Positions 35,713-50,668 of a DNA stretch of 64,000 bases are shown here, piece by piece (position 1 is the first letter of the stretch; every line of letters starts with the position of its first letter). Under the pieces are notes generated by a model that did no database searches, was not told the DNA's origin, and was given only the letters and a program-made list of their open reading frames with translations. The translations under genes were made by a program, and so were the position numbers. Origin of the DNA: an uncultured Clostridium sp. (lineage in GTDB: Bacteria; Bacillota; Clostridia; TANB77; CAG-508); NCBI GenBank assembly GCA_900553755.1, contig USEX01000002.1, positions 16,339-80,338 on the forward strand, written 5' to 3'.

Positions 35713-35789
<77 letters not shown>

Positions 35790-35801
35790 ATTTGCCTATT
35801 T

Positions 35802-35830: not shown

Positions 35831-35879
35831 TAGTTTTATTAGTTTTTTGAGAAATTTATTTATTTTTTATAAAAACATC

Positions 35880-35908: not shown

Positions 35909-35935
35909 TAATAAGTACTTGTTACAAATAATAAC

Positions 35936-36011
35936 CGAGGTGTAGCGCAGTTGGTAGCGCGCGTGGTTTGGGACCATGAGGTCGCAGGTTCGATCCCTGT
36001 CACCTCGACCA
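35936..36011 (+). tRNA. tRNA-Pro (anticodon TGG); integration target of the mobile element
   Basis: CGAGGTGTAGCGCAGTTGGTAGCGCGCGTGGTTTGGGACCATGAGGTCGCAGGTTCGATCCCTGTCACCTCGACCA. The anticodon loop is TTTGGGA and CCA is encoded. Confidence 0.92.
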
Positions 36012-36016
36012 TATTT
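36000..36016 (+). repeat. attL core: 17-bp direct repeat TCACCTCGACCATATTT (last 12 nt of tRNA-Pro plus 5 nt)
   Basis: An exact second copy lies at 46706..46722. The flanking bases differ on both sides. Confidence 0.85.
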
Positions 36017-36193
36017 AAGCAGTAAATTAAATTTACTGTTTATTTTTTTATCAAAATTCAAGAGAATTTATAAAAAGTTAAAAGACGGGAAACGTGCTAT
36101 TTTCAAAGCAATTTTGAAGATTAGCATATTTTTTATATTCTCATAAAAATTTTTTTGACTGCTTATAAATTCTAGAAAATTACCCTATTTCTC

Positions 36194-36245
36194 TCTGGAA
36201 AGGATTTCTGGAAAAATATTATATTCATCTCTGGAATTTCTGGAA
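36194..36245 (+). repeat. Four direct copies of TCTGGAA (arm-type recombinase sites or Rep iterons)
   Basis: Copies at 36194, 36207, 36230 and 36239, in the context (C/T)TCTGGAA(A/T). Two more copies lie near attR at 46626 and 46639. Confidence 0.6.
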
Positions 36246-36311
36246 AGTCAAAAATTATTTATTTCAAACAGATTTATAGTTTTCCAAATATTTTGAAAGG
36301 AGAACTAATCT

Positions 36312-36878
36312 ATGGAATTTACTCCATACAAAATTACAGAAACATTAAATTATATGTTTTATCAAATTCCAATGGAATTATTTTTTAATACTAATTATAA
36401 AGATGCATTATCACTTGAAGCTAAAGTATTATATGGACTTTTACTAAGTCAATTAACATTATCAATAAAAAACAACTGGCAAGATGAAAATGGAGATGTT
36501 TATATAATTCTTACAAGAGAAAAAGTGCAGAAAATGCTTAATATTTCCGATAAAACTGCAACTAAAGCATTTAAACAATTAAGTAAATGCAAACTTATTT
36601 ATGAAAAGAAACAAGGACAAACTAAGCCTAATCTTATTTATGTTGGAAAAATCAAACATGATGATACTATTCCAAATATGACTCGTAAAAATTCCGATTC
36701 TAGAGTCGGAAATAATACGATTCATGACTCGGAAAATTTACGACCTAACTATAATAATAAAAACTATAATAATAGAACTAATAAGAATTTTTCGAATTTT
36801 GAACAAAGAAATTACCCTGAAGGAACATTAGAACATTTATATGCAAATACAGATTGGAATTTATTATATGATAATTAA
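36312..36878 (+). CDS. Replication initiator protein, RepA_N family
   Basis: 188 aa with RBS AAAGGAGAA. The segment FYQIPMELFFNTNYKDALSLEAKVLYGLLLSQLTLSIKNNWQDENGDVYIILTREKVQKMLNISDKTATKAFKQLSKCKLIYEKKQGQTKPNLIYV matches the RepA_N pattern. Confidence 0.85.
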   Translation: MEFTPYKITETLNYMFYQIPMELFFNTNYKDALSLEAKVLYGLLLSQLTLSIKNNWQDENGDVYIILTREKVQKMLNISDKTATKAFKQLSKCKLIYEKKQGQTKPNLIYVGKIKHDDTIPNMTRKNSDSRVGNNTIHDSENLRPNYNNKNYNNRTNKNFSNFEQRNYPEGTLEHLYANTDWNLLYDN

Positions 36879-36954
36879 AAAGTTTATTTTTTTTAACAAA
36901 TTTAGCAATTTTTGTAGTATAATAAGTCAAATGTTAAAATAAGGAGGATTAAAA

Positions 36955-37533
36955 ATGTCAGTAAAAGAAGAAAATGAAATTACAATCAAAGTTACTTGTT
37001 CAAATGATGAATTAATAAAACACTTAACTAATAAAGGATTTAATGAGGGCAGAAAATTTACACTTGATGATTATTATTTAATCCCAAAAGATATAGATAT
37101 CGAGAAATTAACAACAAGAGAAATATTAGCAAAATCTGTAATTATAAGATATATTGTTGATGATGGTAAAATAATTCAAAAAATAACTTTTAAAAAGAAG
37201 GACATTAATGCTGATGGTGAGATTTTAAGTCAAAAAGCAATTAATTGTGATGTATTGGACTATAAAGCAGGAATAAATTTATTTAATGAACTTGGATATT
37301 ACCAAATTATGAACATTAAAGAAAGTGATGTAATTTATTATAAAGATAGGCTTGAATTAGCTATAAAATTTATAGAAAATAGTAATACTTTAATAGAAAT
37401 TGAAACTGATGATAATTTTAAGACAATTGATGAATTAAAAAAATTGGTAACTGAATTAGAAATACCAATTGAAAAAGGTAATTATTTCGTAAAGAAAGCA
37501 GAAGATGAATTGAATAAAATTTTAAAAAAATAA
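36955..37533 (+). CDS. CYTH-like (CyaB / triphosphate tunnel metalloenzyme fold) protein
   Basis: 192 aa with RBS AAGGAGGA. N-terminal strand is NEITIKV (ExExK with the second Glu replaced by Thr). Further segments are IIRYIVDDGKIIQKITFKKK and the C-terminal LELAIKFIENSNTLIEIETDD (GxxxEIE-like). The call comes from pattern recognition only. Confidence 0.5.
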   Translation: MSVKEENEITIKVTCSNDELIKHLTNKGFNEGRKFTLDDYYLIPKDIDIEKLTTREILAKSVIIRYIVDDGKIIQKITFKKKDINADGEILSQKAINCDVLDYKAGINLFNELGYYQIMNIKESDVIYYKDRLELAIKFIENSNTLIEIETDDNFKTIDELKKLVTELEIPIEKGNYFVKKAEDELNKILKK

Positions 37534-37576
37534 AAATTATAAAAATGTAAAATTGATTCTATGAAGGAGAATGATA

Positions 37577-38095
37577 ATGTACAATAAAATTTGTATAATT
37601 GGTGGAAGTGGTAGTGGAAAAACAACATTATCAAGAAATCTAGGAAAATTACTGAATATTCCAGTTTATAATATTGATGGAATACACTATTTGAAAGATT
37701 GGAAACCAAGAGATAAAAAAGAAAGGGACAGTATTATTTTAGATAAAATCAATACAACAAGATGGATTATGGATGGAACATATAGTTCAACCTTAGATGC
37801 AAGAATGAATGCTTCTGATTTAGTAATCTTCCTTGACTATTCATCTTTTGCAAGATTCTGCGGAGTATTAAAGAGATTTATTAAAAATCATGGAAAAGAA
37901 AAAGAAGAAATTCCAGGTTGTAAAGAAAAAATGGATATTGATTTTATAAAGATTCTATTTAAATGGAAAAATAAAAGAATTAGTATTATAGATAAATTAT
38001 CTAAAGTTAATAATGAAAAAATAATTATTTTTAAAAACAGAAAACAGTTAAATGAATGGTATAAAAAACAATTTAATAAAAATATAGAAAAATAG
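37577..38095 (+). CDS. P-loop NTPase, topology-modulation (FlaR)/adenylate-kinase-like
   Basis: Walker A in KICIIGGSGSGKTTLSRNLGKLLNIPVYNIDGIHY, then ...WIMDGTYSSTLDARMNASDLVIFLDYS. The start is taken at 37577, 7 nt after GGAG; the ORF is open from 37571. Confidence 0.75.
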   Translation: MYNKICIIGGSGSGKTTLSRNLGKLLNIPVYNIDGIHYLKDWKPRDKKERDSIILDKINTTRWIMDGTYSSTLDARMNASDLVIFLDYSSFARFCGVLKRFIKNHGKEKEEIPGCKEKMDIDFIKILFKWKNKRISIIDKLSKVNNEKIIIFKNRKQLNEWYKKQFNKNIEK

Positions 38096-38164
38096 ATGTG
38101 AGATGTTAGCTTTTATAACTTAACGTCTTTTTTTGTGTAAAAAATAAATATGGAGGAACTGAAA

Positions 38165-38545
38165 ATGAAAAATGAAGTGAATAATAAAATAACATATCAT
38201 CAAGAAGGGGAATATTTAATACCAGATGTAAAACTACCTGAAGAAAATCCTAAATATAAAAATAAAACAATAGGAAAATATGGACAATTAAGATTGAATT
38301 ATTTGAAAGAATATAAAAAAGGATTGTATCAGCAATTGTTAATGGAGAACAAATTATTTGAGCATTTAGTTGATACAAATAAAGAAGCGAAATCAAGAGT
38401 GAGATTAATTACAAATCAAATTGCAAAGCAAGAACATATTAATGAATATCAAAAAGGAAGAGATGCTTTAGATTGGGTTTGTGCTATGAATAATGCACAG
38501 GCAAGAGCAGAAGAAATAGTTTATAAAGAAATAATTTATGTATAG
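38165..38545 (+). CDS. tnpV: TnpV-like transposon-associated protein
   Basis: ITYHQEGEYLIPDVKLPEE...IGKYGQLRLNYLKEYKKGLYQQLLMENKLFEHLVDTNKEAKSR matches the TnpV pattern of clostridial mobile elements. The start is taken at 38165, 7 nt after GGAGG. Confidence 0.75.
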   Translation: MKNEVNNKITYHQEGEYLIPDVKLPEENPKYKNKTIGKYGQLRLNYLKEYKKGLYQQLLMENKLFEHLVDTNKEAKSRVRLITNQIAKQEHINEYQKGRDALDWVCAMNNAQARAEEIVYKEIIYV

Positions 38546-38560
38546 AAAGAGGTAATAAAA

Positions 38561-38884
38561 ATGGAAGAAACAAGATTATATGATATGGATTCAGTTGAAT
38601 TATATGAGTTAATTGATCAAACAAGAATTGAGCTTAAAAAGAATAATATTGAGTACAAGAAATTGTCAGATAAATTGCATAAGATTATGGATAAATATAC
38701 AAATTTACAATTACTTTTAGAAGATGAAAAATTAGTAGAATTGAACACTGAAGAATGCAAACAATTGCAAGAAGTCGTGTCATTAGAAATGCAATTAAGG
38801 AACTTTGAAGAAAGACAAATATTCTTTTTAGGTGCAAGAGAAAATTACTTTTATTTGCAAAATCTTGGGTTAATAAAAAGATGA
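38561..38884 (+). CDS. Hypothetical element protein (coiled-coil)
   Basis: 107 aa with RBS AGAGG. Its C-terminus ERQIFFLGARENYFYLQNLGLIKR has a homologous fragment in the neighbouring remnant (EKEIFFLGGKEVYFFFKHLGILR, about 47526-47600). Confidence 0.65.
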   Translation: MEETRLYDMDSVELYELIDQTRIELKKNNIEYKKLSDKLHKIMDKYTNLQLLLEDEKLVELNTEECKQLQEVVSLEMQLRNFEERQIFFLGARENYFYLQNLGLIKR

Positions 38885-38961
38885 TTTTCAGCAACTATAA
38901 ATTTAAAAGTAAATAATTGGTTGTGAGTACAGCTATATATTTTCTGTATAATGCAAGCAAC

Positions 38962-38986
38962 GTATTTGTACTCACGCCACAAATAC
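38962..38986 (+). other. Candidate oriT hairpin upstream of mobC
   Basis: GTATTTGT-ACTCACGCC-ACAAATAC: a perfect 8-bp inverted repeat inside the block ATGCAAGCAACGTATTTGTACTCACGCCACAAATAC. That block is conserved with a single base difference at 47627..47661 in the remnant, whereas the flanking non-coding DNA diverges. Confidence 0.55.
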
Positions 38987-39044
38987 AATTAAAGAATGGG
39001 ATAAATCCCAAACCCTATTTAAAATTAGAAAGTGAGATGAAAAT

Positions 39045-39410
39045 ATGAGAGATAGAACAATAAAAATTAATGTATTTTTAAATGAAAGTGAAAAGAAAAT
39101 CTTTGATGAAAAAGCAAAAAAATCTGGATTAAATAAGTCGGAATTTTTTCGAAAAATCATTTTAGATTATCAATTAAGTGAAAAGCCAGATGAAAGATTT
39201 TATGAGTTCTTACATCAATTAAGAGGTATGGCAACAAATTTAAAGCAAATGGCTAAAATATATAATCAAAATTATGGATATATTAATACAAGTAAATATA
39301 AAACAATGCTTGATGAAATAGAAGCATTTATTTTAGGTTTAAATGAAGTTTATGTATTACCTAAAAAGATTGGAGGTACTAATGGCAACAACAAGTCTAT
39401 GGAAATTTAG
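39045..39410 (+). CDS. mobC: Mobilization relaxosome accessory protein MobC
   Basis: 121 aa. An RHH-like N-terminus (RTIKINVFLNESEKKIFDEKAKKSGLNKSEFFRKIIL) is followed by LHQLRGMATNLKQMAKIYN (the NLNQ-type MobC motif). Confidence 0.85.
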   Translation: MRDRTIKINVFLNESEKKIFDEKAKKSGLNKSEFFRKIILDYQLSEKPDERFYEFLHQLRGMATNLKQMAKIYNQNYGYINTSKYKTMLDEIEAFILGLNEVYVLPKKIGGTNGNNKSMEI

Positions 39411-40665
39411 TAGTAGATTAAAAGGTTTAATTGATTATGTTTCAAATGATAAAAAAACAAATAATAAGAATTTAGTATCTGGTATAAATTGCTTACCCAA
39501 TATAGCATATCAAGAAATGATGAATACTAAAAAACAATTTTTTAAGACTGATGGCATTGAATGTTTTCATGGCTATCAGTCTTTTGTTTCAGGCGAAGTT
39601 ACACCCGAAATAGCTCATGAAATTGGTATAAAACTTGCTGAAAAACTATGGGGAGATAAATATCAAGTAATAGTTGCAACACATACAAATACAGATAATA
39701 TTCATAATCATTTCGTGCTAAATTCTGTTTCATTTAAAGATGGGAAGAAATTCACTAATAGAAATAAAGACTATAATAACATGCAATATGAATCAGATAA
39801 TTTGTGCAAAGAATATGGATTAAGTGTATTACCTAAAAAATATGATTATTCAAAATATGCAACAAATAACTTATATAAAGAATTAATGAAAGATTCAATT
39901 GACTATGCTATTGAAAATGCTAATAGTTATGATGAATTTATTTCTATATTAAATGATTTGGATTATGAAATAACAATTAGAAATGATGAACTTTCTATTA
40001 GGCGAGAACCTTATAAAAGAAACACAAGAATATTAAAACAATTTGGAGCAGATTACTCTTTAGAAAATATTAAAAAGAGAATTTTAGAAGAGCAACCATT
40101 GTTTAAGCATTTTCCAGAAGCATATTTAACTATAAATGCTAGATTAAATTATTATAATAATTCGAAAAACAAATTATTATCAAATAAATCCATTTATAGC
40201 TTTTTATTTTTATCTAATGAAAAAGTATTCATGTTAGGTATAGAAAATGCTTTAAAAAACAATATGACGAAATATACACCAGAATTAATTAGAGAAATAA
40301 AACAAATGCATGAATATTCAAAACAAGCAGATTTTTTAACTAAATATAATATTAAAACTGAAGCAGAATTAAATAATTTTGAAAAATCGGTATATGAGAA
40401 ATTAAATCCTTTAAAAAGTGAACGTGAAAATTTATGGAAAAAACATAAAAGATTAAAAACTAAAGATGAAAAATTAGAAATTGAAAATAGAATTGCTGAA
40501 ATTTCTAGAGAGATTTTTTCACTTACAGAAGATTTGAAATATTGTAAGCAAATTCAAGAAAGAATGGATAATTATAAAAAAGAACAGCTTTATCAACAAA
40601 TGGTTGAAGAAAAGAATGAAATGGAAAAAGAATTAAAAAGTAAAAAGAAAAAGAGAGTAAGATAG
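39382..40665 (+). CDS. Relaxase / mobilization nuclease (MobA/VirD2 family)
   Basis: The start MATTSLWKF lies 5 nt after GGAGG and overlaps the mobC end. Histidine triad in VATHTNTDNIHNHFVLNSV. The C-terminal half is coiled-coil. Confidence 0.88.
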   Translation: MATTSLWKFSSRLKGLIDYVSNDKKTNNKNLVSGINCLPNIAYQEMMNTKKQFFKTDGIECFHGYQSFVSGEVTPEIAHEIGIKLAEKLWGDKYQVIVATHTNTDNIHNHFVLNSVSFKDGKKFTNRNKDYNNMQYESDNLCKEYGLSVLPKKYDYSKYATNNLYKELMKDSIDYAIENANSYDEFISILNDLDYEITIRNDELSIRREPYKRNTRILKQFGADYSLENIKKRILEEQPLFKHFPEAYLTINARLNYYNNSKNKLLSNKSIYSFLFLSNEKVFMLGIENALKNNMTKYTPELIREIKQMHEYSKQADFLTKYNIKTEAELNNFEKSVYEKLNPLKSERENLWKKHKRLKTKDEKLEIENRIAEISREIFSLTEDLKYCKQIQERMDNYKKEQLYQQMVEEKNEMEKELKSKKKKRVR

Positions 40666-40764
40666 GAAAAGGAGCAGTTGTTATCTGCTCCAAACAAAAA
40701 AATTTAGATTAAATCATTAATAAAAATTGTAATAATGTGAAAAATCATATTTAAGCAAATATTA

Positions 40765-41301
40765 TTATTCGCAATTTTTTTTATACAACTTTTGCAATGT
40801 TTTTTTATTCAAAACCTCATATACTCCATTTTCAGCCATTTCATTATAAACATCTGTTAAAAAATTAGCTGTTTTCTGATTAACTTGTGCAGTTTTTCTG
40901 TTCTTTTCCCAATATTCAATTTGATTTTGAATTTTCCATCCTTTTCCTGTATAGATCATACTTGCAGATAAAGAATCACAAATCATTTCAACAGCATATT
41001 TATAAGGAATCATTATTGTTTTATCTGTTGTTTTATCATCATACCAATATTCATAATGATGTTTATTTCTTCCTTTATGATGTAACCAAGCTTCAGAATA
41101 TCCATTTACTTTTTTACATTCAGAAATTGGACTATAATTCCCATTATAGTATTTTGCAGATTCAAAAAATTCTATTGGACTATATTTTGATAAATCATGT
41201 ACAAATCCTCTCCATGGTATACCTGCTTTACAACATAATTTAAATACTTTTATTCTATGTCTTGTTATCAATATAAAATGTTTTACCATATTTTTTACCA
41301 T
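40765..41301 (-). CDS. Hypothetical cargo protein (His-rich, DUF5662-like)
   Basis: 178 aa containing HRIKVFKLCCKAGIPWRGFVHDLSKYSP...AWLHHKGRNKHHYEYWYD. No function can be read from the sequence. Confidence 0.6.
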   Translation of the reverse strand: MVKNMVKHFILITRHRIKVFKLCCKAGIPWRGFVHDLSKYSPIEFFESAKYYNGNYSPISECKKVNGYSEAWLHHKGRNKHHYEYWYDDKTTDKTIMIPYKYAVEMICDSLSASMIYTGKGWKIQNQIEYWEKNRKTAQVNQKTANFLTDVYNEMAENGVYEVLNKKTLQKLYKKNCE

Positions 41302-41659
41302 ATTTTACGTCCCCTTTTTATCTCTGTATTTCTTAATTTTTTCTATATCAAAATCAACTTACATTACTTCTATAATTATGTTCTCATTTTCTGGATTTGC
41401 TTTTAGTCTTTCTACATACTCTGTTATTATTTCCCTAATTTCCTGTTGTCCTTTTCGGTAATACGAATTTACGAAAAATGCAAGCACATACTTTTTTCAT
41501 CGTGATTTTTCTCGTTAGAGAATTACTATTTTTCTTAATAATTAAATTATATAATACATACGATTTAAGTACAAGTATTATATAATATTTTCGGCGATAC
41601 TTTTGACAATTTAGGCTAAACTTCGGCGGTACTTTATCCAAAGTTCAGTAAAATTATAA

Positions 41660-43156
41660 TTATTTTATTTTCCAATATCCACCATTATCTGGTCCAATTC
41701 TTTCAATTAAATTATTATCCTTTAATTTTCGGATATGATTTGTTATTGTTGTTCTTCCTAAAGAAAGTTCTTTGCTCATTTTAGCCTGTGTAATATAAGG
41801 ATTTTGTTTAATTAACAATATAATTTTATAGTCTATGCTATCATCTGATATCTGTCCATCTCTATCCACTTCTGTCCACTTCTGTCCATACACTTTCTGT
41901 TCATTTTTGTCCACTTCTGTCCAAGATTTATAAAATGTAACTTTAAAATCTCCTCTTAATGATTCGAATTTCGGCTCTGGCAAATTCATTTTTTTCATTT
42001 CATCAATCATTGTAGCAATTCCAGTATGTCGATTTTCAATAATACTATTATTAATTTCAAGTAATTTAACAATACTTTTATTTCTAACTTCTAACATAAT
42101 ATCAGTACCTAATGCTTCTAATCGATTATTACCATATAAATCACCAGGATTAATTATTTCAATTCTATCTGTAAAAATCTTAATATAAATATAAGCACTT
42201 TCTCTACTTATACTATAATCCCTATGAACTAATGCATTTGCAATAGCTTCTCTTAATGCTTTCATAGGATATTCTGGAATATCAGTTCTTTTCCCATTAT
42301 CATCTATTATTACTTTTGTAGAAATATTTCGTCTTATAAAAGCAAGAGCTTGATCTAACATTTCATCAAGAGTTCCTTCAATACTTTGATTGTCATTAAA
42401 TCTCTGACCAACTTCTCCTGTTTCAGCCCATTTTGTACCTGGAACAAATACACATGCAATAAATAATTGTGGAAGAAAACCTTGAGGATATTCACCAAAT
42501 AACATAAGTCCAGCTAGTGTTGGATAGATTATACCTGTGCTATTATCAATAACACCACATAATTTTAATATTTTCTCATCTGAAAATTTTGCAAAATTAG
42601 GCTTATCTTTTTTGGCCTTTTCTAAAAATGCATTAATTTTTTCTTTATCCAAATCTTCAAGTGTTGCAATCTTTATAGGTCGTTTATCTTCTTGAACACC
42701 ATCTTTATAACTATTTAAACAATAAATTTCGTATTCAGTCATATGTTCATCTGAATCTCCTATTCTAATATAGGAACCTTTATGCATTCCGAGGTCTTTA
42801 TAGTAACAAGGTTTTTGCACTTGAGGAATTTCATCTATTTTTACAGCTAATAATGTCTTATTGTTATATTTTATTGGTAAAAATGTTGGACGAACTTTAG
42901 GTTCCATACAATTAGTACATAATGCTGTGACTTTCTTTTGCAAATCATTAACATCATATACATCCTGTTCTATAAAATTATTATTCTCATTTATTCCAAA
43001 TATTATTATTCCACCATATTTATTTGAAAATGCAGATATTGTATCATAACATTTTTTAGGAAAATCTATTTCAGCAGTTTTTGCTTCAATTTGATCTGTT
43101 TCTGTTTGATACTTTTGCATATATTCTATTTTTTCTATTACTTCTTGCTCGGTCAT
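41660..43156 (-). CDS. AlbA_2 (Schlafen-like) + HATPase_c_4-like + C-terminal winged-HTH protein
   Basis: 498 aa. N-terminus is DQIEAKTAEIDFPKKCYDTISAFSNKYGGIIIFGINE. The middle region carries ALREAIANALVHRDYS. The C-terminus is ELSLGRTTITNHIRKLKDNNLIERIGPDNGGYWKI. Confidence 0.75.
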   Translation of the reverse strand: MTEQEVIEKIEYMQKYQTETDQIEAKTAEIDFPKKCYDTISAFSNKYGGIIIFGINENNNFIEQDVYDVNDLQKKVTALCTNCMEPKVRPTFLPIKYNNKTLLAVKIDEIPQVQKPCYYKDLGMHKGSYIRIGDSDEHMTEYEIYCLNSYKDGVQEDKRPIKIATLEDLDKEKINAFLEKAKKDKPNFAKFSDEKILKLCGVIDNSTGIIYPTLAGLMLFGEYPQGFLPQLFIACVFVPGTKWAETGEVGQRFNDNQSIEGTLDEMLDQALAFIRRNISTKVIIDDNGKRTDIPEYPMKALREAIANALVHRDYSISRESAYIYIKIFTDRIEIINPGDLYGNNRLEALGTDIMLEVRNKSIVKLLEINNSIIENRHTGIATMIDEMKKMNLPEPKFESLRGDFKVTFYKSWTEVDKNEQKVYGQKWTEVDRDGQISDDSIDYKIILLIKQNPYITQAKMSKELSLGRTTITNHIRKLKDNNLIERIGPDNGGYWKIK

Positions 43157-43174
43157 CTATCTAACCTCCAGATG

Positions 43175-44095
43175 TTATTTATTCTTTTCTCTATTCTTAT
43201 AAACATTAGCAACATTCCTACAACTAATAGAATCATATTCAGCCTTTAGATTCTTAGCAATAAAAGGTCTGCCACAATGTTTACATATCTTTAATTCTTT
43301 TCTATCATTAGCTTCATTTAAACCTAATAATACTTCCATAGCTTGTTTTAAAGAATTAAATTGCCAATCTAATGAAACTTTATTATTATCAAAACTAAAA
43401 GAAAAGGCTATATTATTTGGTATGAATTCACTAGCATACTTTTGATAAATTGCTTTTTTATCTTCATTTTCTTCTGAAATACTATTTTCAGTTGATTCAA
43501 AAATCTTATATAGTAATTTAGAATAAAATAAAATTCGAGCAATTTTTTCAGTATATCTTTCAGAAAATACTAAATTAAAATCTTCTTGTAGGTTTGGTAA
43601 TTCATCTGTTGGATTATTACCATAAACATATTTTATAATATTCTCATTTAATCCATTATTAAAATCAATATTCATAATATTTTCATCTTCAACAAAGAAA
43701 GGTTTTATATAATTATTAGCTGAAACCTTCGTAATTTCTGAATATCCTTGTAAATAAACTTCTCCCGCTGAAATTAATTTAGTATTAAGAGGACTATAAG
43801 TTAAATCGCCTAATAAACCATATTTTTTTACAAATTCTAATACCATTTCTTGATATTTAGCTTCTGTACTCATTAGATTACATTCAATATCTCTATTATT
43901 GGTATAATTCAATGTTTCTCTACCTATAAGAAGAAAGTCTTTTAATATTTCTTTATCTACATCATACACATCATAAATTGTATATTCAGAGTTTTTAACA
44001 GGTCTAATATAAAATTCATTATTACTTTTTATGATTTCATAATCATTGTATTTAGCCCAAAACCCTTTAAAATTAAAGTTATTCTCTTTTATCAT
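43175..44095 (-). CDS. Hypothetical protein with C-terminal Cys4 zinc-ribbon (paralogue at 49667..50668)
   Basis: 306 aa ending ...KICKHCGRPFIAKNLKAEYDSISCRNVANVYKNREKNK. It lies 18 nt upstream of the AlbA_2-type gene on the same strand. Confidence 0.65.
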   Translation of the reverse strand: MIKENNFNFKGFWAKYNDYEIIKSNNEFYIRPVKNSEYTIYDVYDVDKEILKDFLLIGRETLNYTNNRDIECNLMSTEAKYQEMVLEFVKKYGLLGDLTYSPLNTKLISAGEVYLQGYSEITKVSANNYIKPFFVEDENIMNIDFNNGLNENIIKYVYGNNPTDELPNLQEDFNLVFSERYTEKIARILFYSKLLYKIFESTENSISEENEDKKAIYQKYASEFIPNNIAFSFSFDNNKVSLDWQFNSLKQAMEVLLGLNEANDRKELKICKHCGRPFIAKNLKAEYDSISCRNVANVYKNREKNK

Positions 44096-44138
44096 ATTTC
44101 TACCCTCAAAAAATTCTTTTAAATTTTCACAAAACTAC

Positions 44139-44167
44139 TTGACAGTTATTTCCTCACAGAGTATACT
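44139..44167 (+). promoter_or_regulatory. Sigma-A promoter for the HTH-xis-int module
   Basis: TTGACA (44139..44144), a 17-nt spacer, then TATACT (44162..44167). An imperfect palindrome follows at about 44211..44243 (TCTTGAATGTAATGT...ACATTACAACAAGA). Confidence 0.6.
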
Positions 44168-44309
44168 GTTAATAGTTCGGTTAACTTAAATAATAACAAG
44201 TTAATTAAATCTTGAATGTAATGTAATAACATTACAACAAGATTATATAACTTTTATTAAAAGTTATCAAGTACTTTAAGAAAAAAAGAAAGGAGGCAAT
44301 AGGAGAACT

Positions 44310-44795
44310 ATGTCAAAAAATGAACAAGTAAAAAAGTCAACCAACAAAGAAGAAATTAAAAGATTATATTTTGAAGAACATTTATCTCAAGTCGAAATAG
44401 CAGAAATATTCAAAGTATCAAAACAAGCAATAAATAAGGTAATAAAAAAAGATCCAAGATTAGCTGAAGAAAAAGAATATAGACATATTTTATCAATTGA
44501 AAATACAAAGAATTACAATAATGAATATTCAAAGACATATAAAAGAAAGAAATCAACTGATACAGAAGAATATTATGCTATGCAAGCACAATTAAATGAA
44601 GATTATAAAATGTTATCTACTCATCATGAAATGAGTGATGAAGCTTTTGCTCAATCAAATAGTAGTATTTATAAATATGATAGCAAAGGAAATAAAGTTT
44701 TAATAGATAGCATAAAATCAAAAATTACAAATGATGTACCTAGATTTATACCTGCTATAAAAATTCCAGTACTAGCACATGGACATCATGTATAA
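44310..44795 (+). CDS. HTH (sigma-70 region-4-like) element regulator
   Basis: 161 aa with RBS AAAGGAGG. The HTH is IKRLYFEEHLSQVEIAEIFKVSKQAINKVIKK. Confidence 0.65.
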   Translation: MSKNEQVKKSTNKEEIKRLYFEEHLSQVEIAEIFKVSKQAINKVIKKDPRLAEEKEYRHILSIENTKNYNNEYSKTYKRKKSTDTEEYYAMQAQLNEDYKMLSTHHEMSDEAFAQSNSSIYKYDSKGNKVLIDSIKSKITNDVPRFIPAIKIPVLAHGHHV

Positions 44796-44822
44796 AAATA
44801 TGAACGAAAGGAGGAAAACACT

Positions 44823-45014
44823 ATGGAAGAAGATATCAAATTCTACAAAACGGAAGATGTTAGAAGAATACTAGGCATAGGAGATAAAAAATGTTTAGAA
44901 TTATTTCATAGAGAAGATTTTCCGTGTATTAAAATTGGAAAGTCTTTTTTAATTGCAGTTAGTGCTTTTAATGAATATGTAAGCACTAGAAGAGTTTTTA
45001 ATGAAACTCGATAA
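44823..45014 (+). CDS. xis: Excisionase-type HTH DNA-binding protein
   Basis: 63 aa with RBS AAAGGAGGA. The segment YKTEDVRRILGIGDKKCLELFHREDFPCIKIGKSFLIAVSAFNEYV matches the MerR-like excisionase pattern. It lies directly upstream of int. Confidence 0.75.
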   Translation: MEEDIKFYKTEDVRRILGIGDKKCLELFHREDFPCIKIGKSFLIAVSAFNEYVSTRRVFNETR

Positions 45015-45163
45015 AAAGAAAAAGATTTAAATATGCCCATTTAAATCTTAAAAATACTATTTAACACACAAAGAAAACCTTGTTATAGTATGTAAGTATT
45101 TTACAACTTATAATGCTAAATAGCAAGGGTTTTCTTTTGTTTTTTTGAGAAAGGAAGGAAAAT

Positions 45164-46546
45164 ATGAATGTAATAAGTGGAATTTCTTATGGTGTTTATT
45201 TAAATAAGAAAATAAAAACTAATAAGATACAACAATTTAAAAATATGACAGCTTTAGAAGTCTGTCAACAATGTGAACATTATAAAATTTGCAAATACGG
45301 AAAAATAAGTAAGTTTGAAAAAGAAAAAATATTTGAAAACAATATTGAATGTGAAAATCTATATTTTTCAATTAATAGAAAAGCAACTTTAACAACAATT
45401 AGAGATACAACTACAGGAAAAGAAACTAAAAAAAGCTTTTCTGGAAAAACAAAAGATGAAGCAATAAGTAAAGCTCTTGCTGCAAAAGTAGAAATTGAGC
45501 AAAATGGAGGAATAAGAGTTATAACTAAAAGTAATAAAACAATGTATGACTTGATTATTGAAATTCTAAATGAAGATCATAAATTAGGAAAAATAAAAGA
45601 TTCAACTTATAAAAGAAAAACAGATAGTTTAAAAAAGTTATCCTTAGAAAAATTTGTGAATAAACCAATATCAAAAGTTACAAGAACAGATATAATCAAT
45701 TATCTTGAAAGCTTAAGAGAATATTCAGCAAGCACAATAAAACAAACTTATGAATTAATATGTATGGCTTTTGGAAAAGCAAAATATGAAAATATAATTG
45801 AAGATAATTTTATGGAAGGATACAATAAAGTTGAAAAACCTAAAAGCAGTTATGTTTCAAAAGAAAGAATTGCTTTAACACTAGATGAACAAAGAATATT
45901 TGTAAATTATCTTAATTCTGTAGATTATGAAGAATGTAGATATAAATATTTATTTTTACTATTATTAAGTACAGGTATGAGAATAGGAGAAGCTTTAGCA
46001 TTAGATTATGAAAAAGATATTGATTTAGAAAACGGAGCAATTACAATAAGAAAAACTTTAACTAAAGATAAAAATGGTAAATATATTATTGGAGATACAA
46101 CTAAAACTTCTAATGGTGTAAGAACAATATATTTAAATAATACTAGCAAGCAAATATTAGAAAATGCATATAAAACAAGAATTGAAAATAAACAACATTT
46201 ATTATTTTGTAGTAAAAATAAAACTTTATATGCACCAAATACAATTAATAGTACATTAAAAAGATTAGCTATTAAATTAAATATTGGTGTTTATGAAGAA
46301 GAAAATAAAAAAGGTAAAATTATAAAGAATACAGATGCCCATACTCACATGCTAAGAGGAACATTTGCAACAAGATGTGCAGAAGCTAAAATTGCACCAG
46401 CAGTGCTTAAAAAAATACTAGGTCATAAAGATATTTCAATCACTATGAAATACTATGTTGATGTTGATAAAGAATTTGAGATTTCAGAAGGTAAAAATAT
46501 AGAAAATTATTTGATGAATAAAGATATTTTTGCTATTGAAAATTAG
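45164..46546 (+). CDS. int: Tyrosine site-specific integrase
   Basis: 460 aa with RBS AAAGGAAGGA. Catalytic residues are in context: TGMRIGEALAL (Arg), HMLRGTFAT (HxxR) and LGHKDISITMKYYVDV (His...Tyr). There is a Cys-rich N-terminal extension, CQQCEHYKICKYG. Confidence 0.92.
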   Translation: MNVISGISYGVYLNKKIKTNKIQQFKNMTALEVCQQCEHYKICKYGKISKFEKEKIFENNIECENLYFSINRKATLTTIRDTTTGKETKKSFSGKTKDEAISKALAAKVEIEQNGGIRVITKSNKTMYDLIIEILNEDHKLGKIKDSTYKRKTDSLKKLSLEKFVNKPISKVTRTDIINYLESLREYSASTIKQTYELICMAFGKAKYENIIEDNFMEGYNKVEKPKSSYVSKERIALTLDEQRIFVNYLNSVDYEECRYKYLFLLLLSTGMRIGEALALDYEKDIDLENGAITIRKTLTKDKNGKYIIGDTTKTSNGVRTIYLNNTSKQILENAYKTRIENKQHLLFCSKNKTLYAPNTINSTLKRLAIKLNIGVYEEENKKGKIIKNTDAHTHMLRGTFATRCAEAKIAPAVLKKILGHKDISITMKYYVDVDKEFEISEGKNIENYLMNKDIFAIEN

Positions 46547-46625
46547 AGCCTTTAAACTACTGAAAATACTAAAGAAAAACAGAAAGAATTTTAGAGAATT
46601 TATTGGAATTATTTACTAAAAATTC

Positions 46626-46645
46626 TCTGGAATATATTTCTGGAA
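46626..46645 (+). repeat. Two direct TCTGGAA copies near attR
   Basis: TTCTCTGGAATATATTTCTGGAATT: the same motif and orientation as the four copies at 36194..36245. Confidence 0.55.
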
Positions 46646-46705
46646 TTAAGTTTAAAACTATAAAACTATTGAAATATAAAGAAATTTAGAGGTTTGTAAT
46701 CTAAC

Positions 46706-46722
46706 TCACCTCGACCATATTT
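46706..46722 (+). repeat. attR core: second copy of TCACCTCGACCATATTT
   Basis: Exact 17/17 match to 36000..36016. Confidence 0.85.
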
Positions 46723-46855
46723 TACCCTTTTTCAAGGGAATTTAAGAGAATTTATAAAAATTCAAAAGTTATGAATTATGCTATTTTTCAAAGAAATTTG
46801 AGAATAGCATAATTTTTTTGCGTTCTAAAAAATTCTAAAAAATATGCTCATTTTC

Positions 46856-46919
46856 TTCAACAAAAAATTTCAACAAAAATATTTTCAAGTTCAAAAAAAT
46901 TTCAACAATATTTCAACAA
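46856..46919 (+). repeat. Four direct copies of TTCAACAA upstream of the remnant rep gene
   Basis: Copies at 46856, 46869, 46901 and 46912. The position and the 13-bp spacing of the first pair match the TCTGGAA set of the intact element, but the motif is different. Confidence 0.55.
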
Positions 46920-46987
46920 AAGAATTTTTAGTTGTATACCAATATTTTTCAAAGTTCTTCATATTGCAAAGAAAGGAGAACTTGCTT

Positions 46988-47560
46988 ATGAAATTTATAC
47001 CATATAAAGCTAATGAATGCTTTGAACATTTATATTATCAGATACCCATGGAATTATTTTTTAATAAAAATTATAAGGATAAATTAAGTTCAGATAGTAA
47101 AATTCTTTATGGTTTTTTATTAAACAGGTTAACTTTGTCAGCTAAAAATAATTGTATTGATGAAGAAAGCAATGTATTCTTAATATTTACTAGAAAAGAA
47201 GTTCAAGAATTATTGAATTTATCAGATAAAACTGTTACCAAATCATTTAAACAATTAAAAGAATGTAAGCTAATACATGAGAAAAAACAGGGCTCTACTA
47301 AACCTAATTTGATTTATGTAGGAAAAATAGAGCATGATAAAAATCTTATAAAAGTGATTCGTAAAAATTACGATTCAAGAGCCGTAAATTCTACGAGTCA
47401 TGACACGGAAAATTTACGACCTAACTATAACAATAATAATTATAACTATAAAGGAAAAAGCAAGTATAGTTTTCAAAATTATGAACAAAGGCATTATGAT
47501 AATTTAGATTTTTTATATGCAATCAATAGAAGAAAAAGAAATTTTCTTTTTAGGTGGTAA
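46988..47560 (+). CDS. RepA_N family replication initiator of the remnant element (3' end replaced at a deletion junction)
   Basis: The start MKFIPYK lies 8 nt after AAAGGAGAA. The sequence is collinear with 36312..36878 up to ...NYEQRHY, after which the tail INRRKRNFLFRW is unrelated. The track start at 46844 is a spurious extension over the repeats. Confidence 0.7.
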   Translation: MKFIPYKANECFEHLYYQIPMELFFNKNYKDKLSSDSKILYGFLLNRLTLSAKNNCIDEESNVFLIFTRKEVQELLNLSDKTVTKSFKQLKECKLIHEKKQGSTKPNLIYVGKIEHDKNLIKVIRKNYDSRAVNSTSHDTENLRPNYNNNNYNYKGKSKYSFQNYEQRHYDNLDFLYAINRRKRNFLFRW

Positions 47561-47636
47561 AGAAGTATACTTTTTCTTTAAACATCTTGGTATTTTGAGG
47601 TGGGTACTTTGTAGATTTCTTGAATATGCAAGCAAC

Positions 47637-47661
47637 GTATTTGTACTCACGCTACAAATAC
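47637..47661 (+). other. oriT-like hairpin of the remnant element
   Basis: GTATTTGT-ACTCACGCT-ACAAATAC: same stem as 38962..38986, with one loop base changed. Confidence 0.5.
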
Positions 47662-47719
47662 ACATAAGAATGGGAAGAATCCCAAACCCAAAGAAAAAAA
47701 TAGAAAGTGAGATAAAAAA

Positions 47720-48085
47720 ATGAGAGCTAGAAATATAAAAATTAATATATTTTTAAATGAAGATGAAAAAAGAATTTTGGATGAAAAGGTAAAAAAGTCT
47801 GGATTAAATAAATCAGAATTTTTTATAAAAATAATTTTAGATTATAAGTTAAAAGAACAACCAGATGAAAGATTTTATGAAATACTTGCTCAATTGAGAG
47901 GTATGGCAAATAACTTAAATCAAATGGCAAGAACTTATAACAGATATCAGGGTTATATGAGAGAAGACAAGTTTACTCCATTGCTACATCAGATACAAGA
48001 TTTTGTTTTAAGTTTAGAGCAAGTTTATTTTTCCCCTCAAAAGAAAGGAACTTTATATGGCAACAACAAAACTATGGAAATTTAA
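47720..48085 (+). CDS. mobC: MobC of the remnant element
   Basis: 121 aa, collinear with 39045..39410 (LAQLRGMANNLNQMARTYN). Confidence 0.8.
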   Translation: MRARNIKINIFLNEDEKRILDEKVKKSGLNKSEFFIKIILDYKLKEQPDERFYEILAQLRGMANNLNQMARTYNRYQGYMREDKFTPLLHQIQDFVLSLEQVYFSPQKKGTLYGNNKTMEI

Positions 48086-48152
48086 AAGTAGATTAGATAG
48101 GCTTATAGATTATGCAATTAATGGAGAACTTAGTTCATTTTCCTTTTTGTGA
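48057..48152 (+). pseudogene. Truncated relaxase (first ~21 codons only)
   Basis: MATTKLWKFKSRLDRLIDYAI matches MATTSLWKFSSRLKGLIDYVS of the intact relaxase. Homology is then lost, with a stop at 48150..48152. Confidence 0.75.
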
Positions 48153-48318
48153 TTTATCTCAATAAAATTTCCTAGTAATTTCCTTTTAATTTCCTCTGTT
48201 TCCTTTATATCATAATATTCTTCTGTTTTATTTTTTGAATCGTAAACTCTTGAGCCAAAATACTCATCAACAATAAAATACCTTTTAATTTTTTTATCAA
48301 TTCTCCTTTTTATTATGA

Positions 48319-48783
48319 TTAATTACATGCTTTAGTTCTTTTATTAAGTTTTTCATTTAATTCCCATAAAGCTGTCTTATTACTATCATACTTTAGTTTT
48401 TTTAATGCTTCATCATATTCTACCCATTTGTATTCTTTGTGCTCATTTGAAAGTTGGATATTATCATCCTCGTCTTTTATTTCTATAGCGTATGAGTATT
48501 CTGGTACAACATATACATTTGGCCCCCAAGTATATTCTCCCGTTATATTTAATACTGGAATAGTAGTTTTAGAATCTAATTGTTCTATTTTTATTTTTTC
48601 GACAATTAATGATGTTTCTTCCTTTATTTCCCTAATCACCGTTTCAAGAGGCTTCTCATTATTTTCTCCCCCTCCTGATATAAATTGCCATATAGGGTGT
48701 GAATTTCTATAAAATATACCATATAGGATTCTATTATTTTCTCTTTTATATAGGATTGTTAAAATTTGATATGGCGCTCTCAT
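48319..48783 (-). CDS. NUDIX hydrolase
   Basis: Nudix box GGGENNEKPLETVIREIKEETSL (Gx5Ex7REUxEExGU). The start is taken at MRAPYQ (48783), 8 nt after GGAGGG; the ORF is open from 48831. Confidence 0.85.
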   Translation of the reverse strand: MRAPYQILTILYKRENNRILYGIFYRNSHPIWQFISGGGENNEKPLETVIREIKEETSLIVEKIKIEQLDSKTTIPVLNITGEYTWGPNVYVVPEYSYAIEIKDEDDNIQLSNEHKEYKWVEYDEALKKLKYDSNKTALWELNEKLNKRTKACN

Positions 48784-49117
48784 AAGATATTCCCTCCTAG
48801 CTCTTTTATTGTAATGACTTAAGTATACCACATTTTCCTATTAAAAGTTTAGTTATTTTCACTACTTGCATAATTATTTATTTTTCTCTATCCAATCACA
48901 AAATTCATTTTTAGAAATCTTGTTTTCCCTATATAATTTTAATTGCTCTCTGGCTTTGACTTTCCATTCTTTTTCTAAAGTCATCTCTTTGCATTGCCTG
49001 TGAAATATTAATCATTTGGAATGTTTCAAATAATCCATAAGGAGTAGTCTTGTCAATCCATTCAGAATTAAATTTAATATTAATTTTGTCAAGGTTTAAC
49101 TTATTTTGTCAACATAA

Positions 49118-49603
49118 TTAGTTAATTTTTTGCTCAAATCTTATATTTTTAATATTCATGCCTAAATTTTTATAAAAATTTATAGCATTTTCATTAAATC
49201 CCCACACCAATAGTTCTATATTATCAATATTTCTTTCCTTGGCTAATTGTACAATTTGCTCATATAATTTTTTACCAATTCCTTTTTTTTGATAATTTTT
49301 GTCAACGCAAATATTTTCAATATGTAAAATTTTTCTGTCTTTCATAATTTTATTATTTGATATTTCCTTTATTTGAGAAAAACAAATCCCTACAATTTCA
49401 TTTTTAAATTCAGCAATTAAATATATATTATTGCTATTTGATAATTCATTTTTAAATTCATCAAAATTTATGGGATCAACATCTTTATATATATCATTTC
49501 TCTCATTTATATGTAATTTATGTACTTGCATCATTAGTTTATGAACGCCTTGAAAATCAACTGTTTCAGGCTTTCTTATAATGATTTTCTCTTCCATACT
49601 CAT
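49118..49603 (-). CDS. GNAT family N-acetyltransferase
   Basis: 161 aa with the acetyl-CoA binding motif NICVDKNYQKKGIGKKLYEQIVQLAKERN...ENAINFYKNLGM. Confidence 0.88.
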   Translation of the reverse strand: MSMEEKIIIRKPETVDFQGVHKLMMQVHKLHINERNDIYKDVDPINFDEFKNELSNSNNIYLIAEFKNEIVGICFSQIKEISNNKIMKDRKILHIENICVDKNYQKKGIGKKLYEQIVQLAKERNIDNIELLVWGFNENAINFYKNLGMNIKNIRFEQKIN

Positions 49604-49666
49604 TTCTCCAATCTATTTTTATATTATTCTTATCTATTATATTAAATCTAAATTTAAAAAAATTTA

Positions 49667-50668
49667 TTACTGCTTATTTAGCCATTCCATATATTCAGTT
49701 TGAGTTAATTTTCCTTTTTCAACTTTTTCTCTTAATTGAATATTTTTATTTTTGAATTCATTAAAATCATTTTCATATTGGGTATTATCAGGATTTCTTC
49801 TTGTCCTTAATAGTAATTTCTGATAAACATTCCTATAAATTCTTAAATCATCATTTTCTTGCATTAACTTTTGTTTTGTTCTAAATGTTCCAACTTCTTT
49901 ACAAGTTTTATTGTTTTCATAAATATTATTGCAATATAATTCATCAACTCTATTATCGGGAACAAAGAATCTTCCGCAATTCTTACATTTTTTAATTGCA
50001 GTACTTTCTATTTCAGTCATTTCAAATAATTCAATTATAAATGTTTGTATTATATCAATGCTCTCAAAACAATATGAATTTAAATAATCTGCATTAACGT
50101 TTTTTGCAATTTCTTGCGCATTATCTTCTCTTGTTACAGAAAACTCTGTAAAATCTCCAAAATTATTTAAAGTTAATTTCAAATTATTTGAATCATATAA
50201 TTTTCTTATTTCAGATTCCTTTTTACTATCTCTTAATATATGTAATCTCTGTATAGGAGTTAAGTCATTCAATTCTTCTAAGTCATTTAAATTATATATA
50301 TATGTAATATCAGAAATGAAAGCATTTTTATACAGTTCTAATTTGTTTTTTAAATTATTTATAACATCATCAACCATTTCGTTGTATTCTTTTTCGGAAT
50401 AATACTGATAAATTTTCATATCAAATAGATGAGCTATTGTTGTAATACCATATGTGTTGATAAATTCCTTGATACTAGCTAAATCTGAAAAATCAGTATT
50501 TAAAAAGTCACATAATTGAACTCCTAGTTTGATTTTATCATATCTATTATAAAATTCATAATTTTTATGATTTTGATTAAATCTTAAATCTTGATATGCC
50601 ATAAATTTGTATTTAGTAAACTTATTTATAAAAAATTGATTTTTTAAGCGTAATTCAAATCTTTCCAA
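49667..50668 (-). CDS. Hypothetical protein with Cys-rich zinc-ribbon (paralogue of 43175..44095)
   Basis: 333 aa containing ...KKCKNCGRFFVPDNRVDELYCNNIYENNKTCKEVG, followed by a helical tail. The CxxCGRxF motif is shared with the IME cargo protein. Confidence 0.65.
   Translation of the reverse strand: MERFELRLKNQFFINKFTKYKFMAYQDLRFNQNHKNYEFYNRYDKIKLGVQLCDFLNTDFSDLASIKEFINTYGITTIAHLFDMKIYQYYSEKEYNEMVDDVINNLKNKLELYKNAFISDITYIYNLNDLEELNDLTPIQRLHILRDSKKESEIRKLYDSNNLKLTLNNFGDFTEFSVTREDNAQEIAKNVNADYLNSYCFESIDIIQTFIIELFEMTEIESTAIKKCKNCGRFFVPDNRVDELYCNNIYENNKTCKEVGTFRTKQKLMQENDDLRIYRNVYQKLLLRTRRNPDNTQYENDFNEFKNKNIQLREKVEKGKLTQTEYMEWLNKQ

Follow-up and report, generated by a model that had tools for sequence, protein, structure and literature searches.

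A probable 10.7-kb integrative mobilizable element and an adjoining decayed relative at tRNA-Pro(UGG) in an uncultured gut Clostridia bacterium

What occupies the 10.7 kb that follow the 3′ end of the tRNA-Pro(UGG) gene in an uncultured Clostridium sp. (assembly GCA_900553755.1, contig USEX01000002.1), and does this segment form a mobile element in its own right? The locus lies in a stretch of 64,000 nucleotides (positions 16,339 to 80,338 of the contig), hereafter the window, to which all coordinates refer; L-numbers designate the contigs of relatives with which it was compared. A preliminary description, made from the sequence alone, had read the segment as an integrative mobilizable element (IME) with a tyrosine recombinase. 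This proposal is borne out by an empty site, by related elements at tRNA-Pro, by intact int, xis, mobC and relaxase genes, and by the failure to find genes of a type IV secretion system (T4SS). We therefore interpret 36000/36017-46705/46722 as a canonical IME of an uncultured gut Clostridia bacterium, with a probability of roughly 0.85, followed on its right by the decayed remnant of a related element. IMEs of this kind are well known, and the element is a previously unnamed example that leaves the current understanding of IME mechanism unchanged; its interest lies in being a cleanly delimited member of an IME family, with its empty site, from uncultured low-GC gut Clostridia.

The boundaries of the element are marked by the 17-bp direct repeat TCACCTCGACCATATTT, which occurs in two exact copies spaced 10,706 bp apart (Table 1). 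The 64-kb window contains no further copy, and thus no third att core, even when three mismatches are allowed, and shuffled sequence gives on average 0.01 matches with no more than two mismatches. It begins with the last 12 nt of the tRNA (a T, the acceptor strand on the 3′ side, the discriminator A and the encoded CCA), the only tRNA portion duplicated at attR, and ends with TATTT. Across the family, the att core reads TC(A/G)CCTCGACCA, and the length of the repeat falls from 17 bp in the present element to 14 bp in L021 and 12 bp in L022. The G+C content is 23-25% in most of the element and 27-28% across the minus-strand cargo (41-43 kb). The left flank has 29-32%, and the sign of the GC skew changes at tRNA-Pro.

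To find the unoccupied site, contigs encoding exactly identical flanking proteins (an S66 peptidase on the left, HtrA on the right) were collected, compared with the window by BLAST and aligned at the junctions. In two same-species metagenome contigs, L013 (ERZ4963561) and L019 (ERZ925522), position 36017 is joined to 46706 with a single att copy, and neither BLAST nor the junction alignment detects any trace of the 10.7-kb element between the flanks. The left flank (33001-36017) is 99.6-99.7% identical to the window and the right flank 98.2-98.6% over 46706-53000 (46706-49146 in the shorter L019). Two other metagenomes (L001/L011 and L003/L012) contain the element itself at 99.98-100% identity and with unchanged junctions. 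The insertion into tRNA-Pro(UGG) between exact 17-bp repeats, as first proposed, is confirmed by ARAGORN, Rfam, the repeat search and the empty-site contigs; relatives lacking the insertion show the site at the predicted boundaries, and the alternative that the 10.7 kb are conserved core sequence fails.

Table 1. Positions of the element, its target site, its genes and the adjoining remnant in the 64-kb window.
Feature	Position	Strand	Basis and remarks
tRNA-Pro(UGG)	35936..36011	+	Integration target; complete, CCA encoded; ARAGORN tRNA-Pro(tgg); Rfam RF00005, 67 bits
attL core	36000..36016	+	Repeat copy 1 (last 12 nt of tRNA plus TATTT); left insertion edge relative to L013/L019
Terminator-like hairpin with U7	stem 36016-36027/36031-36042, U7 36043-36049	+	Directly after tRNA; element-borne
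Four direct TCTGGAA repeats (36194, 36207, 36230, 36239)	36194..36245	+	Candidate arm-type integrase sites, P′ arm
RepA_N-domain protein, 188 aa	36312..36878	+	Pfam PF06970, 1.7e-22; backbone, first gene
192-aa protein, weakly CYTH/CyaB-like	36955..37533	+	NCBIfam TIGR00318, E 2.6e-5, below cutoff; cargo slot 1
P-loop kinase-like protein, 174 aa	37571..38095	+	NCBIfam NF005994, 6e-42, below cutoff; AAA_18/AAA_28; cargo slot 1
TnpV-family protein	38150..38545	+	Pfam PF14198, 4.5e-35; backbone; present in L017, L021, L024, L028
DUF6664 protein	38561..38884	+	Pfam PF20369, 4.9e-12; backbone; present in L021, L028
Candidate oriT	38951..39010	+	Upstream of mobC; hairpin block and palindrome
Relaxosome accessory protein, NikA-like ribbon-helix-helix and MobC	39045..39410	+	Pfam PF21983 3e-19, PF05713; NCBIfam MbpA/MobA sub-threshold
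Relaxase, predicted MOBP-type	39343..40665	+	Pfam PF03432, 4.8e-40, residues 32-160
DUF5662 protein	40765..41301	-	Pfam PF18907, 3.4e-36; cargo slot 2; not in L021
SLFN_AlbA_2, HATPase_c_4 and winged-HTH protein, 498 aa	41660..43156	-	Pfam; cargo slot 2
306-aa backbone protein	43175..44095	-	C-terminal Cys motif; same position in L021, L032-34
161-aa HTH protein (YlxM/sigma-70 region 4-like)	44310..44795	+	Pfam, NCBIfam; first gene of HTH-xis-int operon
Excisionase-type HTH_17 protein, 63 aa	44823..45014	+	Pfam PF12728, 3.6e-6
Tyrosine integrase, 460 aa	45164..46546	+	Pfam PF00589 (Phage_integrase)
Two direct TCTGGAA repeats (46626, 46639)	46626..46645	+	Candidate arm-type sites, P arm
attR core	46706..46722	+	Repeat copy 2; doubles as left junction of remnant (hybrid site)
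Decayed related element in tandem	46723..50892	+	Right breakpoint 50892/50893
Remnant RepA_N′	46988-47560		59% aa identity to RepA_N of element
Remnant oriT′	47629-47661
Remnant MobC′	47720-48085		Intact, 64% aa identity
Remnant NUDIX	48319-48831	-
Remnant GNAT	49118-49603	-
Remnant DUF6076	49667-50668	-

The genes of the element were annotated by Pfam and NCBIfam profile searches of its annotated open reading frames (ORFs) of at least 60 amino acids (aa). All genes named at first reading (RepA_N, tnpV, mobC, a relaxase, three minus-strand genes and a helix-turn-helix (HTH)-xis-int module) are present, with Pfam supporting the families, and the 192-aa ORF, the 174-aa P-loop kinase and the DUF6664 gene have to be added. 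The division into backbone and cargo follows from L021, a Clostridia metagenome-assembled genome (MAG) from the Hadza gut, where a tRNA-Pro site in unrelated flanks holds an element with a 96% identical integrase (Int) and a 14-bp repeat, TCACCTCGACCATA. All nine backbone proteins are shared with it at 80-98% aa identity, compared with none of the four cargo proteins, which points to horizontal spread and to two cargo slots. The preliminary description had counted three minus-strand cargo genes; the DUF5662 and SLFN_AlbA_2 genes are cargo indeed, but the 306-aa gene keeps its position in L021 and L032-34 and therefore belongs to the backbone. Likewise, the modules do not form an odd mosaic, as had been supposed, but amount to the usual backbone of a large family that has no name. 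In slot 1, the 192-aa protein matches nothing in Pfam or, by sequence, in the PDB; it is absent from L017 and L021 and has a 61% aa homologue in the L002 element. The P-loop kinase-like gene, whose NCBIfam match NF005994 is the 'DNA topology modulation protein' family, is also absent from L017 and L021. In slot 2, the 498-aa protein has PADLOC matches to pAgo and Aga-associated profiles over its annotated domains and is not conserved in L021. In the operon that ends with int, the 161-aa HTH protein is 90% identical at the aa level in L021 and 42% in L032, and the HTH_17 gene upstream of int is kept in L021, L024 and L028.

The integrase finds its best solved-structure match in Tn1549 Int (phmmer against the PDB, E 3e-16), and its R273 corresponds to the position changed in the R225K variant crystallised for that protein. 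In an alignment of 18 family members with 55-90% identity, residues R273, K314, H395, R398, H421 and Y430/Y431 are invariant, as is the motif C34-x2-C37-x5-C43-x19-C63 in the N-terminal part. The AlphaFold model (mean predicted local distance difference test, pLDDT, 77.5) was matched by Foldseek to Tn1549 Int (template modelling score 0.76-0.78, target-normalised) and to full-length lambda Int. The modelled N-terminus comprises strands at residues 7-17, 66-81 and 87-94 and a helix at 97-113, and resembles an arm-binding domain into which a Cys-rich segment is inserted. This Cys4 motif (Int residues 1-130, window 45164-45560) may constitute a zinc site, which is not known to have been described for integrases of this kind.

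Direct TCTGGAA repeats in both arms of the element are candidate arm-type sites for this integrase. Of the 27 copies on both strands of the 64-kb window, six lie in about 480 bp of element arms, where about 0.2 would be expected, an enrichment that is indicative only, as the motif was picked after inspection of the data. The repeats are conserved in the P′ arm of L017 and L021 and in the P arm of L021 and L023. Where the integrase is a different one, these positions hold different repeats, namely TTTCAAGAAA in L022 (Int 69% identical) and TTCTAGAAT in L002 (Int 31%). The repeats could instead be operators or iterons of RepA_N, given that those of the P′ arm sit just 5′ of the RepA_N gene (start 36312); their change along with Int across family members argues for the integrase.

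For transfer, the element encodes a relaxase that we assign to the MOBP type from its PF03432 domain, its motifs (LIDYVSN with the motif I Tyr, and the His triad HTNTDNIHNH) and its MOBP-typed plasmid relatives; the NCBIfam matches TraI_MobP and SAG1250 are sub-threshold. Gene calls on other contigs begin at M14, giving a probable start at 39382 and a length of 427 aa. A tblastn search of PLSDB returned 1348 plasmids, the best at 30-38% identity and none above 60%, with five records covering at least 80% of the relaxase. These relatives are mainly mobilizable plasmids of Enterococcus, Staphylococcus, Lactococcus and Clostridium, and both of the typed ones that were checked, a 4.2-kb staphylococcal mobC-relaxase plasmid and a C. 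botulinum plasmid, are MOBP by MOB-suite. Upstream of mobC, the block ATGCAAGCAACGTATTTGTACTCACGCCACAAATAC (38951-38986), which holds the inverted repeat GTATTTGT(9)ACAAATAC (38962-38969/38979-38986), is followed by the palindrome TGGGATAAATCCCA at 38997-39010. Both are near-invariant in the element, the remnant, L017, L021 and L013, within surroundings of only 70-80% identity, and this conserved hairpin region is our candidate oriT.

The preliminary description had noted that T4SS and coupling-protein genes are lacking, and a Pfam scan agrees: no T4SS or coupling-protein domain was detected in the scanned ORFs of the element or in 10 sampled flanking ORFs, which resemble ordinary chromosome (NrdD, surface proteins, PBP5, a nonribosomal peptide synthetase (NRPS) and a two-component system). 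One could imagine a decayed integrative conjugative element (ICE) that lost its T4SS and was never built for mobilization, the more so as the best annotated full-length plasmid relative of the relaxase, on a Cohnella plasmid that is untyped and called non-mobilizable, adjoins PcfB and a VirD4-like coupling protein. Yet L017, L021, L024, L028 and L032-34 are all small and share the same compact backbone, with no T4SS gene or pseudogene seen, and we consider such an origin highly improbable.

The first backbone gene raises the question of whether the excised circle replicates. Residues 7-113 of its product match the N-terminal DNA-binding domain of staphylococcal RepA (PDB 4PTA, E 1e-22; also 4PT7 and 5KBJ), and the rest is an Asn-rich tail. 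A RepA_N replication initiator has a C-terminal domain that recruits host factors and about 300 aa or more, compared with 188 aa here. Short RepA_N proteins have been noted in IMEs, where they probably serve another function (PMC5357655). With the N-terminal domain alone, an Asn-rich tail and such short IME forms in view, we do not call this protein a replication initiator; of the earlier label rep (RepA_N), the domain assignment alone stands. An integrating plasmid, that is, an episome whose circle replicates through RepA_N rather than a transfer-only IME, would account for the conservation of this domain in first position, for PHROG matches to DnaD-like helicase loader and replication initiator families, and for the repeats upstream of the gene. 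The similarity to the RepA proteins of pSK41/pTZ2162 is nevertheless confined to the N-terminal domain, the short IME proteins suggest another function, and the relaxase has only the distant PLSDB relatives given above, so that a replicating episome seems unlikely.

Directly after attL, the element supplies a hairpin with a 12-bp stem (36016-36042; dG -10.3 kcal/mol, z = -5.6 by RNA folding) and a U-run. A simple terminator scan did not call it because the stem holds only two G-C pairs. The hairpin is kept in L017 and L021, with a G-U pair retained in the former and changed to A-U in the latter; in the empty-site strains, the remnant-side sequence after the tRNA forms a weak 5-bp hairpin without a U run. 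The element was first described as restoring a terminator to the tRNA: hairpin and U7 are supported by folding, and their action as a tRNA terminator is inferred. In L023, a hairpin and T-run much like those of the element (495-530) follow the att core of a 95% identical Int and precede chromosomal-looking genes (OYE-type reductase), which suggests that the element hairpin may derive from or mimic the native tRNA-Pro terminator.

To the right of attR, homology reveals the left end of another, related element, and the array is a tandem accretion. Nucleotide identity is 73-80% between 46739-47496 and 36055-36814 and 79% between 47616-48114 and 38941-39439. The relaxase is reduced to a stub, similarity ending about 29 bp past the mobC′ stop (~48114), only the last 28 residues of DUF6664′ are left, and no xis, int or full relaxase gene was found in 46723-50892. 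On the right, the stretch homologous to the DUF6076-to-xis spacer inside the L002 element ends at 50892/50893, 75 bp before the stop codon of HtrA. Nor was a decayed attR found when six attR arms were aligned to 50669-50967, where the matches were only low-scoring and AT-rich. A possible att core at 50861-50877 was rejected, as 50669-50892 is collinear with the L002 interior. Within this region, a 76-bp block (50817-50892) is identical to the L002 spacer at 74 of 76 positions, compared with ~83% in its surroundings, and its start coincides with the ends (50818-50840) of L006-L010, five independent contigs from metagenomes. The block has no Rfam match; it may be a regulatory leader 5′ of xis, or no more than a repeat present in several copies.

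The empty-site contigs also give the order of events. In L013 and L019, the remnant already adjoins the tRNA, and thus the 10.7-kb element came later, between tRNA and remnant. It would have entered a site held by an older relative, since deprived of relaxase, xis, int and right att, with the resulting order tRNA, new IME, remnant and chromosome. An accretion model was reportedly put forward by Pavlovic in 2004. The accretion pathway has been described for ICEs and IMEs, and tandem arrays with decayed elements are common (PMC5357655, PMC5704250). A cis-mobilizable element (CIME) keeps both attL and attR; here the right att is lost and the left junction is the attR of the newcomer, so that the remnant, unlike those of streptococcal accretions, is no CIME.

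This array bears on two further ideas, namely that the island is a prophage remnant or phage satellite, or that the repeat belongs to a longer duplicated tRNA flank, a case already raised at first reading. The 3′ ends of tRNA genes are phage targets too, and similarity does run past the second repeat copy. That similarity, however, is element sequence, the left end of a relative with RepA_N′ and MobC′, the repeated tRNA portion stops at 12 nt, and the empty site is precise. Moreover, none of the 13 element ORFs matches capsid, terminase, portal or primase-helicase families (Pfam; 10 also against PHROGs), and IMG/VR viral contigs contain no close Int relative, the best being 36-37% identical. 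Both ideas are extremely improbable.

Taken as an IME, the element would have arisen and would move as follows. The element's attP would have carried the final 12 nt of tRNA-Pro followed by TATTT, and the 460-aa Int would have recombined it with the 3′ end of the chromosomal tRNA-Pro(UGG) gene. A whole tRNA gene would have been restored at attL, with the hairpin and U-run of the element behind it, and attR would have kept a partial copy. For excision, Int and the HTH_17 excisionase would join attL and attR into a circle, presumably guided by binding of the Int N-terminal domain to the TCTGGAA arm repeats (four in P′, two in P). Once the circle has formed, NikA/MobC and the MOBP-type relaxase would come together at the candidate oriT hairpin and nick it. 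A conjugative element in the same cell would then supply the coupling protein and T4SS that take over the relaxase-DNA complex; the most plausible helpers are ICEs or plasmids of Firmicutes, either of the Tn1549 family or otherwise of MOBP type.

Besides the position of the P′-arm repeats, several observations weigh against this interpretation. Excision and the circular form are deduced from sequence. The relaxase has no PDB match by sequence search, the oriT is a candidate defined by its conserved hairpin, and the window contains no helper element. Furthermore, in the 10 bp that follow CCA, one indel and two substitutions separate attR from its attB counterpart in the empty-site strains (TATTTTACCC at window attR, ATTTAGCCC in the empty-site strains; window 36012-36016/46718-46727 versus L013 9610-9622), in flanks that are otherwise 98.6% identical. 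This difference may be a junction scar of past integration/excision cycles or a strain polymorphism, and it leaves the exact crossover point, or the ancestral attB of this strain, unfixed. The element could also be a fixed relic that integrated site-specifically and no longer excises or transfers; the neighbouring remnant demonstrates in-place decay within this family. A relic is decidedly unlikely, though, when all nine backbone genes are full-length and conserved in another genome (L021), when both att cores are exact and the arm repeats and oriT block intact, and when strains whose flanks are more than 98% identical differ in carrying the element.

How widely do such elements occur? At E<=1e-20, a protein database dominated by metagenomes contains 873 relatives of the integrase; the 120 best are mostly full-length, 54-97% identical and nearly all unnamed metagenome proteins, and public assemblies hold hundreds of integrase clusters in the range of 55-97% identity. 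The host is an uncultured low-GC gut Clostridia lineage (human gut according to some sample names). A scan of genome contigs gave three loci, and the species-level distribution is based on metagenome contigs. At this same locus, L017 carries a cargo-less variant with a 98% identical left end and 92-93% identical TnpV, mobC and relaxase, without 36882-38145 and DUF6664; L002 has a different element at junction 46706, with a 31% identical Int and DUF6076 and Ham1p/pyrophosphatase cargo; and L014 has another beside the tRNA, encoding a 309-aa RepA_N protein and a Mob_Pre relaxase. With these variants at one site, tRNA-Pro(UGG) is, on the evidence of the contigs, a polymorphic insertion hotspot in this species, with at least four different elements and tandem arrays across strains. 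Elsewhere in the family, L028 (Int 59%) encodes RepA_N, TnpV, DUF6664, NikA and relaxase, then an MmeI restriction-modification system and an AAA_15 ATPase, and finally DUF6076, Xis and Int. L024 (Int 61%) has a radical-SAM cluster as well as two additional att cores, indicating a multi-element array; tandem arrays with two or three att cores were found in L022, L024 and L027.

Tn916 and Tn1549 insert into AT-rich sites with little specificity and form heteroduplex coupling sequences; unlike them, the element is specific for a tRNA 3′ end and flanked by direct repeats of 12-17 bp in its family. Its Int shares with those integrases (PDB 6EMY, 6EN0) the catalytic residues, a predicted heterobivalent architecture and a small HTH excisionase encoded upstream, but is only 22-24% identical to them and has the extra N-terminal Cys4 segment. 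With Tn4451/Tn4453 of Clostridium, it has in common that both are mobilizable integrated clostridial elements encoding TnpV, which takes its name from there. Tn4451 has the large serine recombinase TnpX, the MOBV (Mob_Pre) relaxase TnpZ and many GA insertion sites (PMC5704250), in contrast to the PF00589 tyrosine integrase, PF03432 relaxase and single tRNA target of the element; TnpV alone is shared, and with neither TnpX nor TnpZ the element does not belong to that group.

Closer counterparts are MOBP7/PF03432 IMEs with an upstream mobC, which have been described in gut Clostridia (the Faecalibacterium catalogue), as has the Tn1549-ICE type (PMC12084326). With these, and with canonical IMEs (PMC5704250), the element shares a size of ~10 kb, a tyrosine integrase at one end, mobC followed by a PF03432 relaxase, a candidate oriT 5′ of mobC and the lack of a coupling protein or T4SS; defence- or stress-type cargo and frequent composite and tandem structures are further points of likeness. 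As regards the relaxase, the likeness is one of the PF03432 domain and upstream mobC, not of clade placement within MOBP. The element differs from these IMEs in its host, a low-GC (~27-30%) uncultured Clostridia MAG, in an Int family that is tRNA-Pro-specific and bears an N-terminal Cys4 insertion, and in a backbone of short RepA_N, TnpV, DUF6664 and 306-aa/HTH or DUF6076 proteins that is not described in PMC12084326. The streptococcal IME accretions (Coluzzi 2017, PMC5357655) resemble the present array in tRNA 3′-end integration and in the insertion of a newcomer beside the intact target gene of a decaying resident. Streptococcal IMEs mostly have non-canonical (Rep-like/MOBT) or MOBV/MOBQ relaxases, with a single PF03432 IME, and their list of targets does not include tRNA-Pro (PMC5357655). 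In the literature searched, the family and its target appear to be undescribed. Its backbone (short RepA_N, TnpV, DUF6664, mobC, MOBP relaxase, 306-aa/HTH or DUF6076, xis and Cys4-bearing Int) is easily missed by automated annotation.

The 306-aa backbone protein has a confidently folded model and no known fold. It belongs to no Pfam, NCBIfam or PADLOC family, and its ~181 homologues are unnamed. It is 97% identical at the aa level in L021 and 38% in L032-34, where its gene lies at the same position, divergent from HTH-xis-int, beside a different integrase. The AlphaFold2 model (pLDDT 86.8, predicted template modelling score 0.88) matches no PDB structure at E<=1e-3 and one unnamed BFVD entry (2.8e-5), the other hits being short, zinc-ribbon-like and local; at the sequence level, the PDB yields a single marginal partial match. 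Residues C271, C274 and C292 are invariant in its family. DUF6076 occupies the same position in other family members, and an identity of the two is not demonstrable, as their alignment is limited to the CxxC...C segment; a literature search for DUF6076 and DUF6664 found nothing.

Cargo across the family (window 36955-38095 and 48319-48831, and the L002, L024 and L028 elements) repeatedly includes nucleotide-handling proteins (CYTH/CyaB-like, weakly, and P-loop kinase, NUDIX, Ham1p/pyrophosphatase, His_Phos_1, dCMP deaminase and HD). Defence-type genes also recur (SLFN_AlbA_2, MmeI restriction-modification, AAA_15 and AbiEii). A role of this cargo in defence or counter-defence is possible from its domain content. 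A broader synthesis is tentative and, taken as a whole, doubtful: these elements might form a large unnamed superfamily of tRNA-Pro IMEs with a new excision/transfer switch and two exchangeable defence-cargo slots. In this scheme, the switch would consist of the 306-aa protein, or its positional counterpart DUF6076, and the adjacent HTH protein; slot 1 (RepA_N/TnpV) would lie on the oriT side that enters the recipient first, and slot 2 between relaxase and 306-aa gene; and nucleotide-handling enzymes, SLFN/AlbA_2 and MmeI restriction-modification would act in defence or counter-defence.

Beyond the array, the window contains several other features. The region 52322-62393 encodes a two-module NRPS of 2482 aa, ending in a reductase-type domain, and after it a seven-transmembrane histidine kinase and a response regulator; it is kept beside HtrA in all related contigs. 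A 546-aa ORF at 18478-20118 (minus strand) joins Sigma70_r4 to an RNA polymerase alpha C-terminal domain, an unusual pairing. Very large surface-protein genes (SpaA, SdrD_B, DUF11; 746, 1384 and 1640 aa) and a VWA protein gene lie at 306-2546 and 5812-16475 (minus strand), and the first 2 kb of the window have a G+C content of 43-45%, well above the window average.

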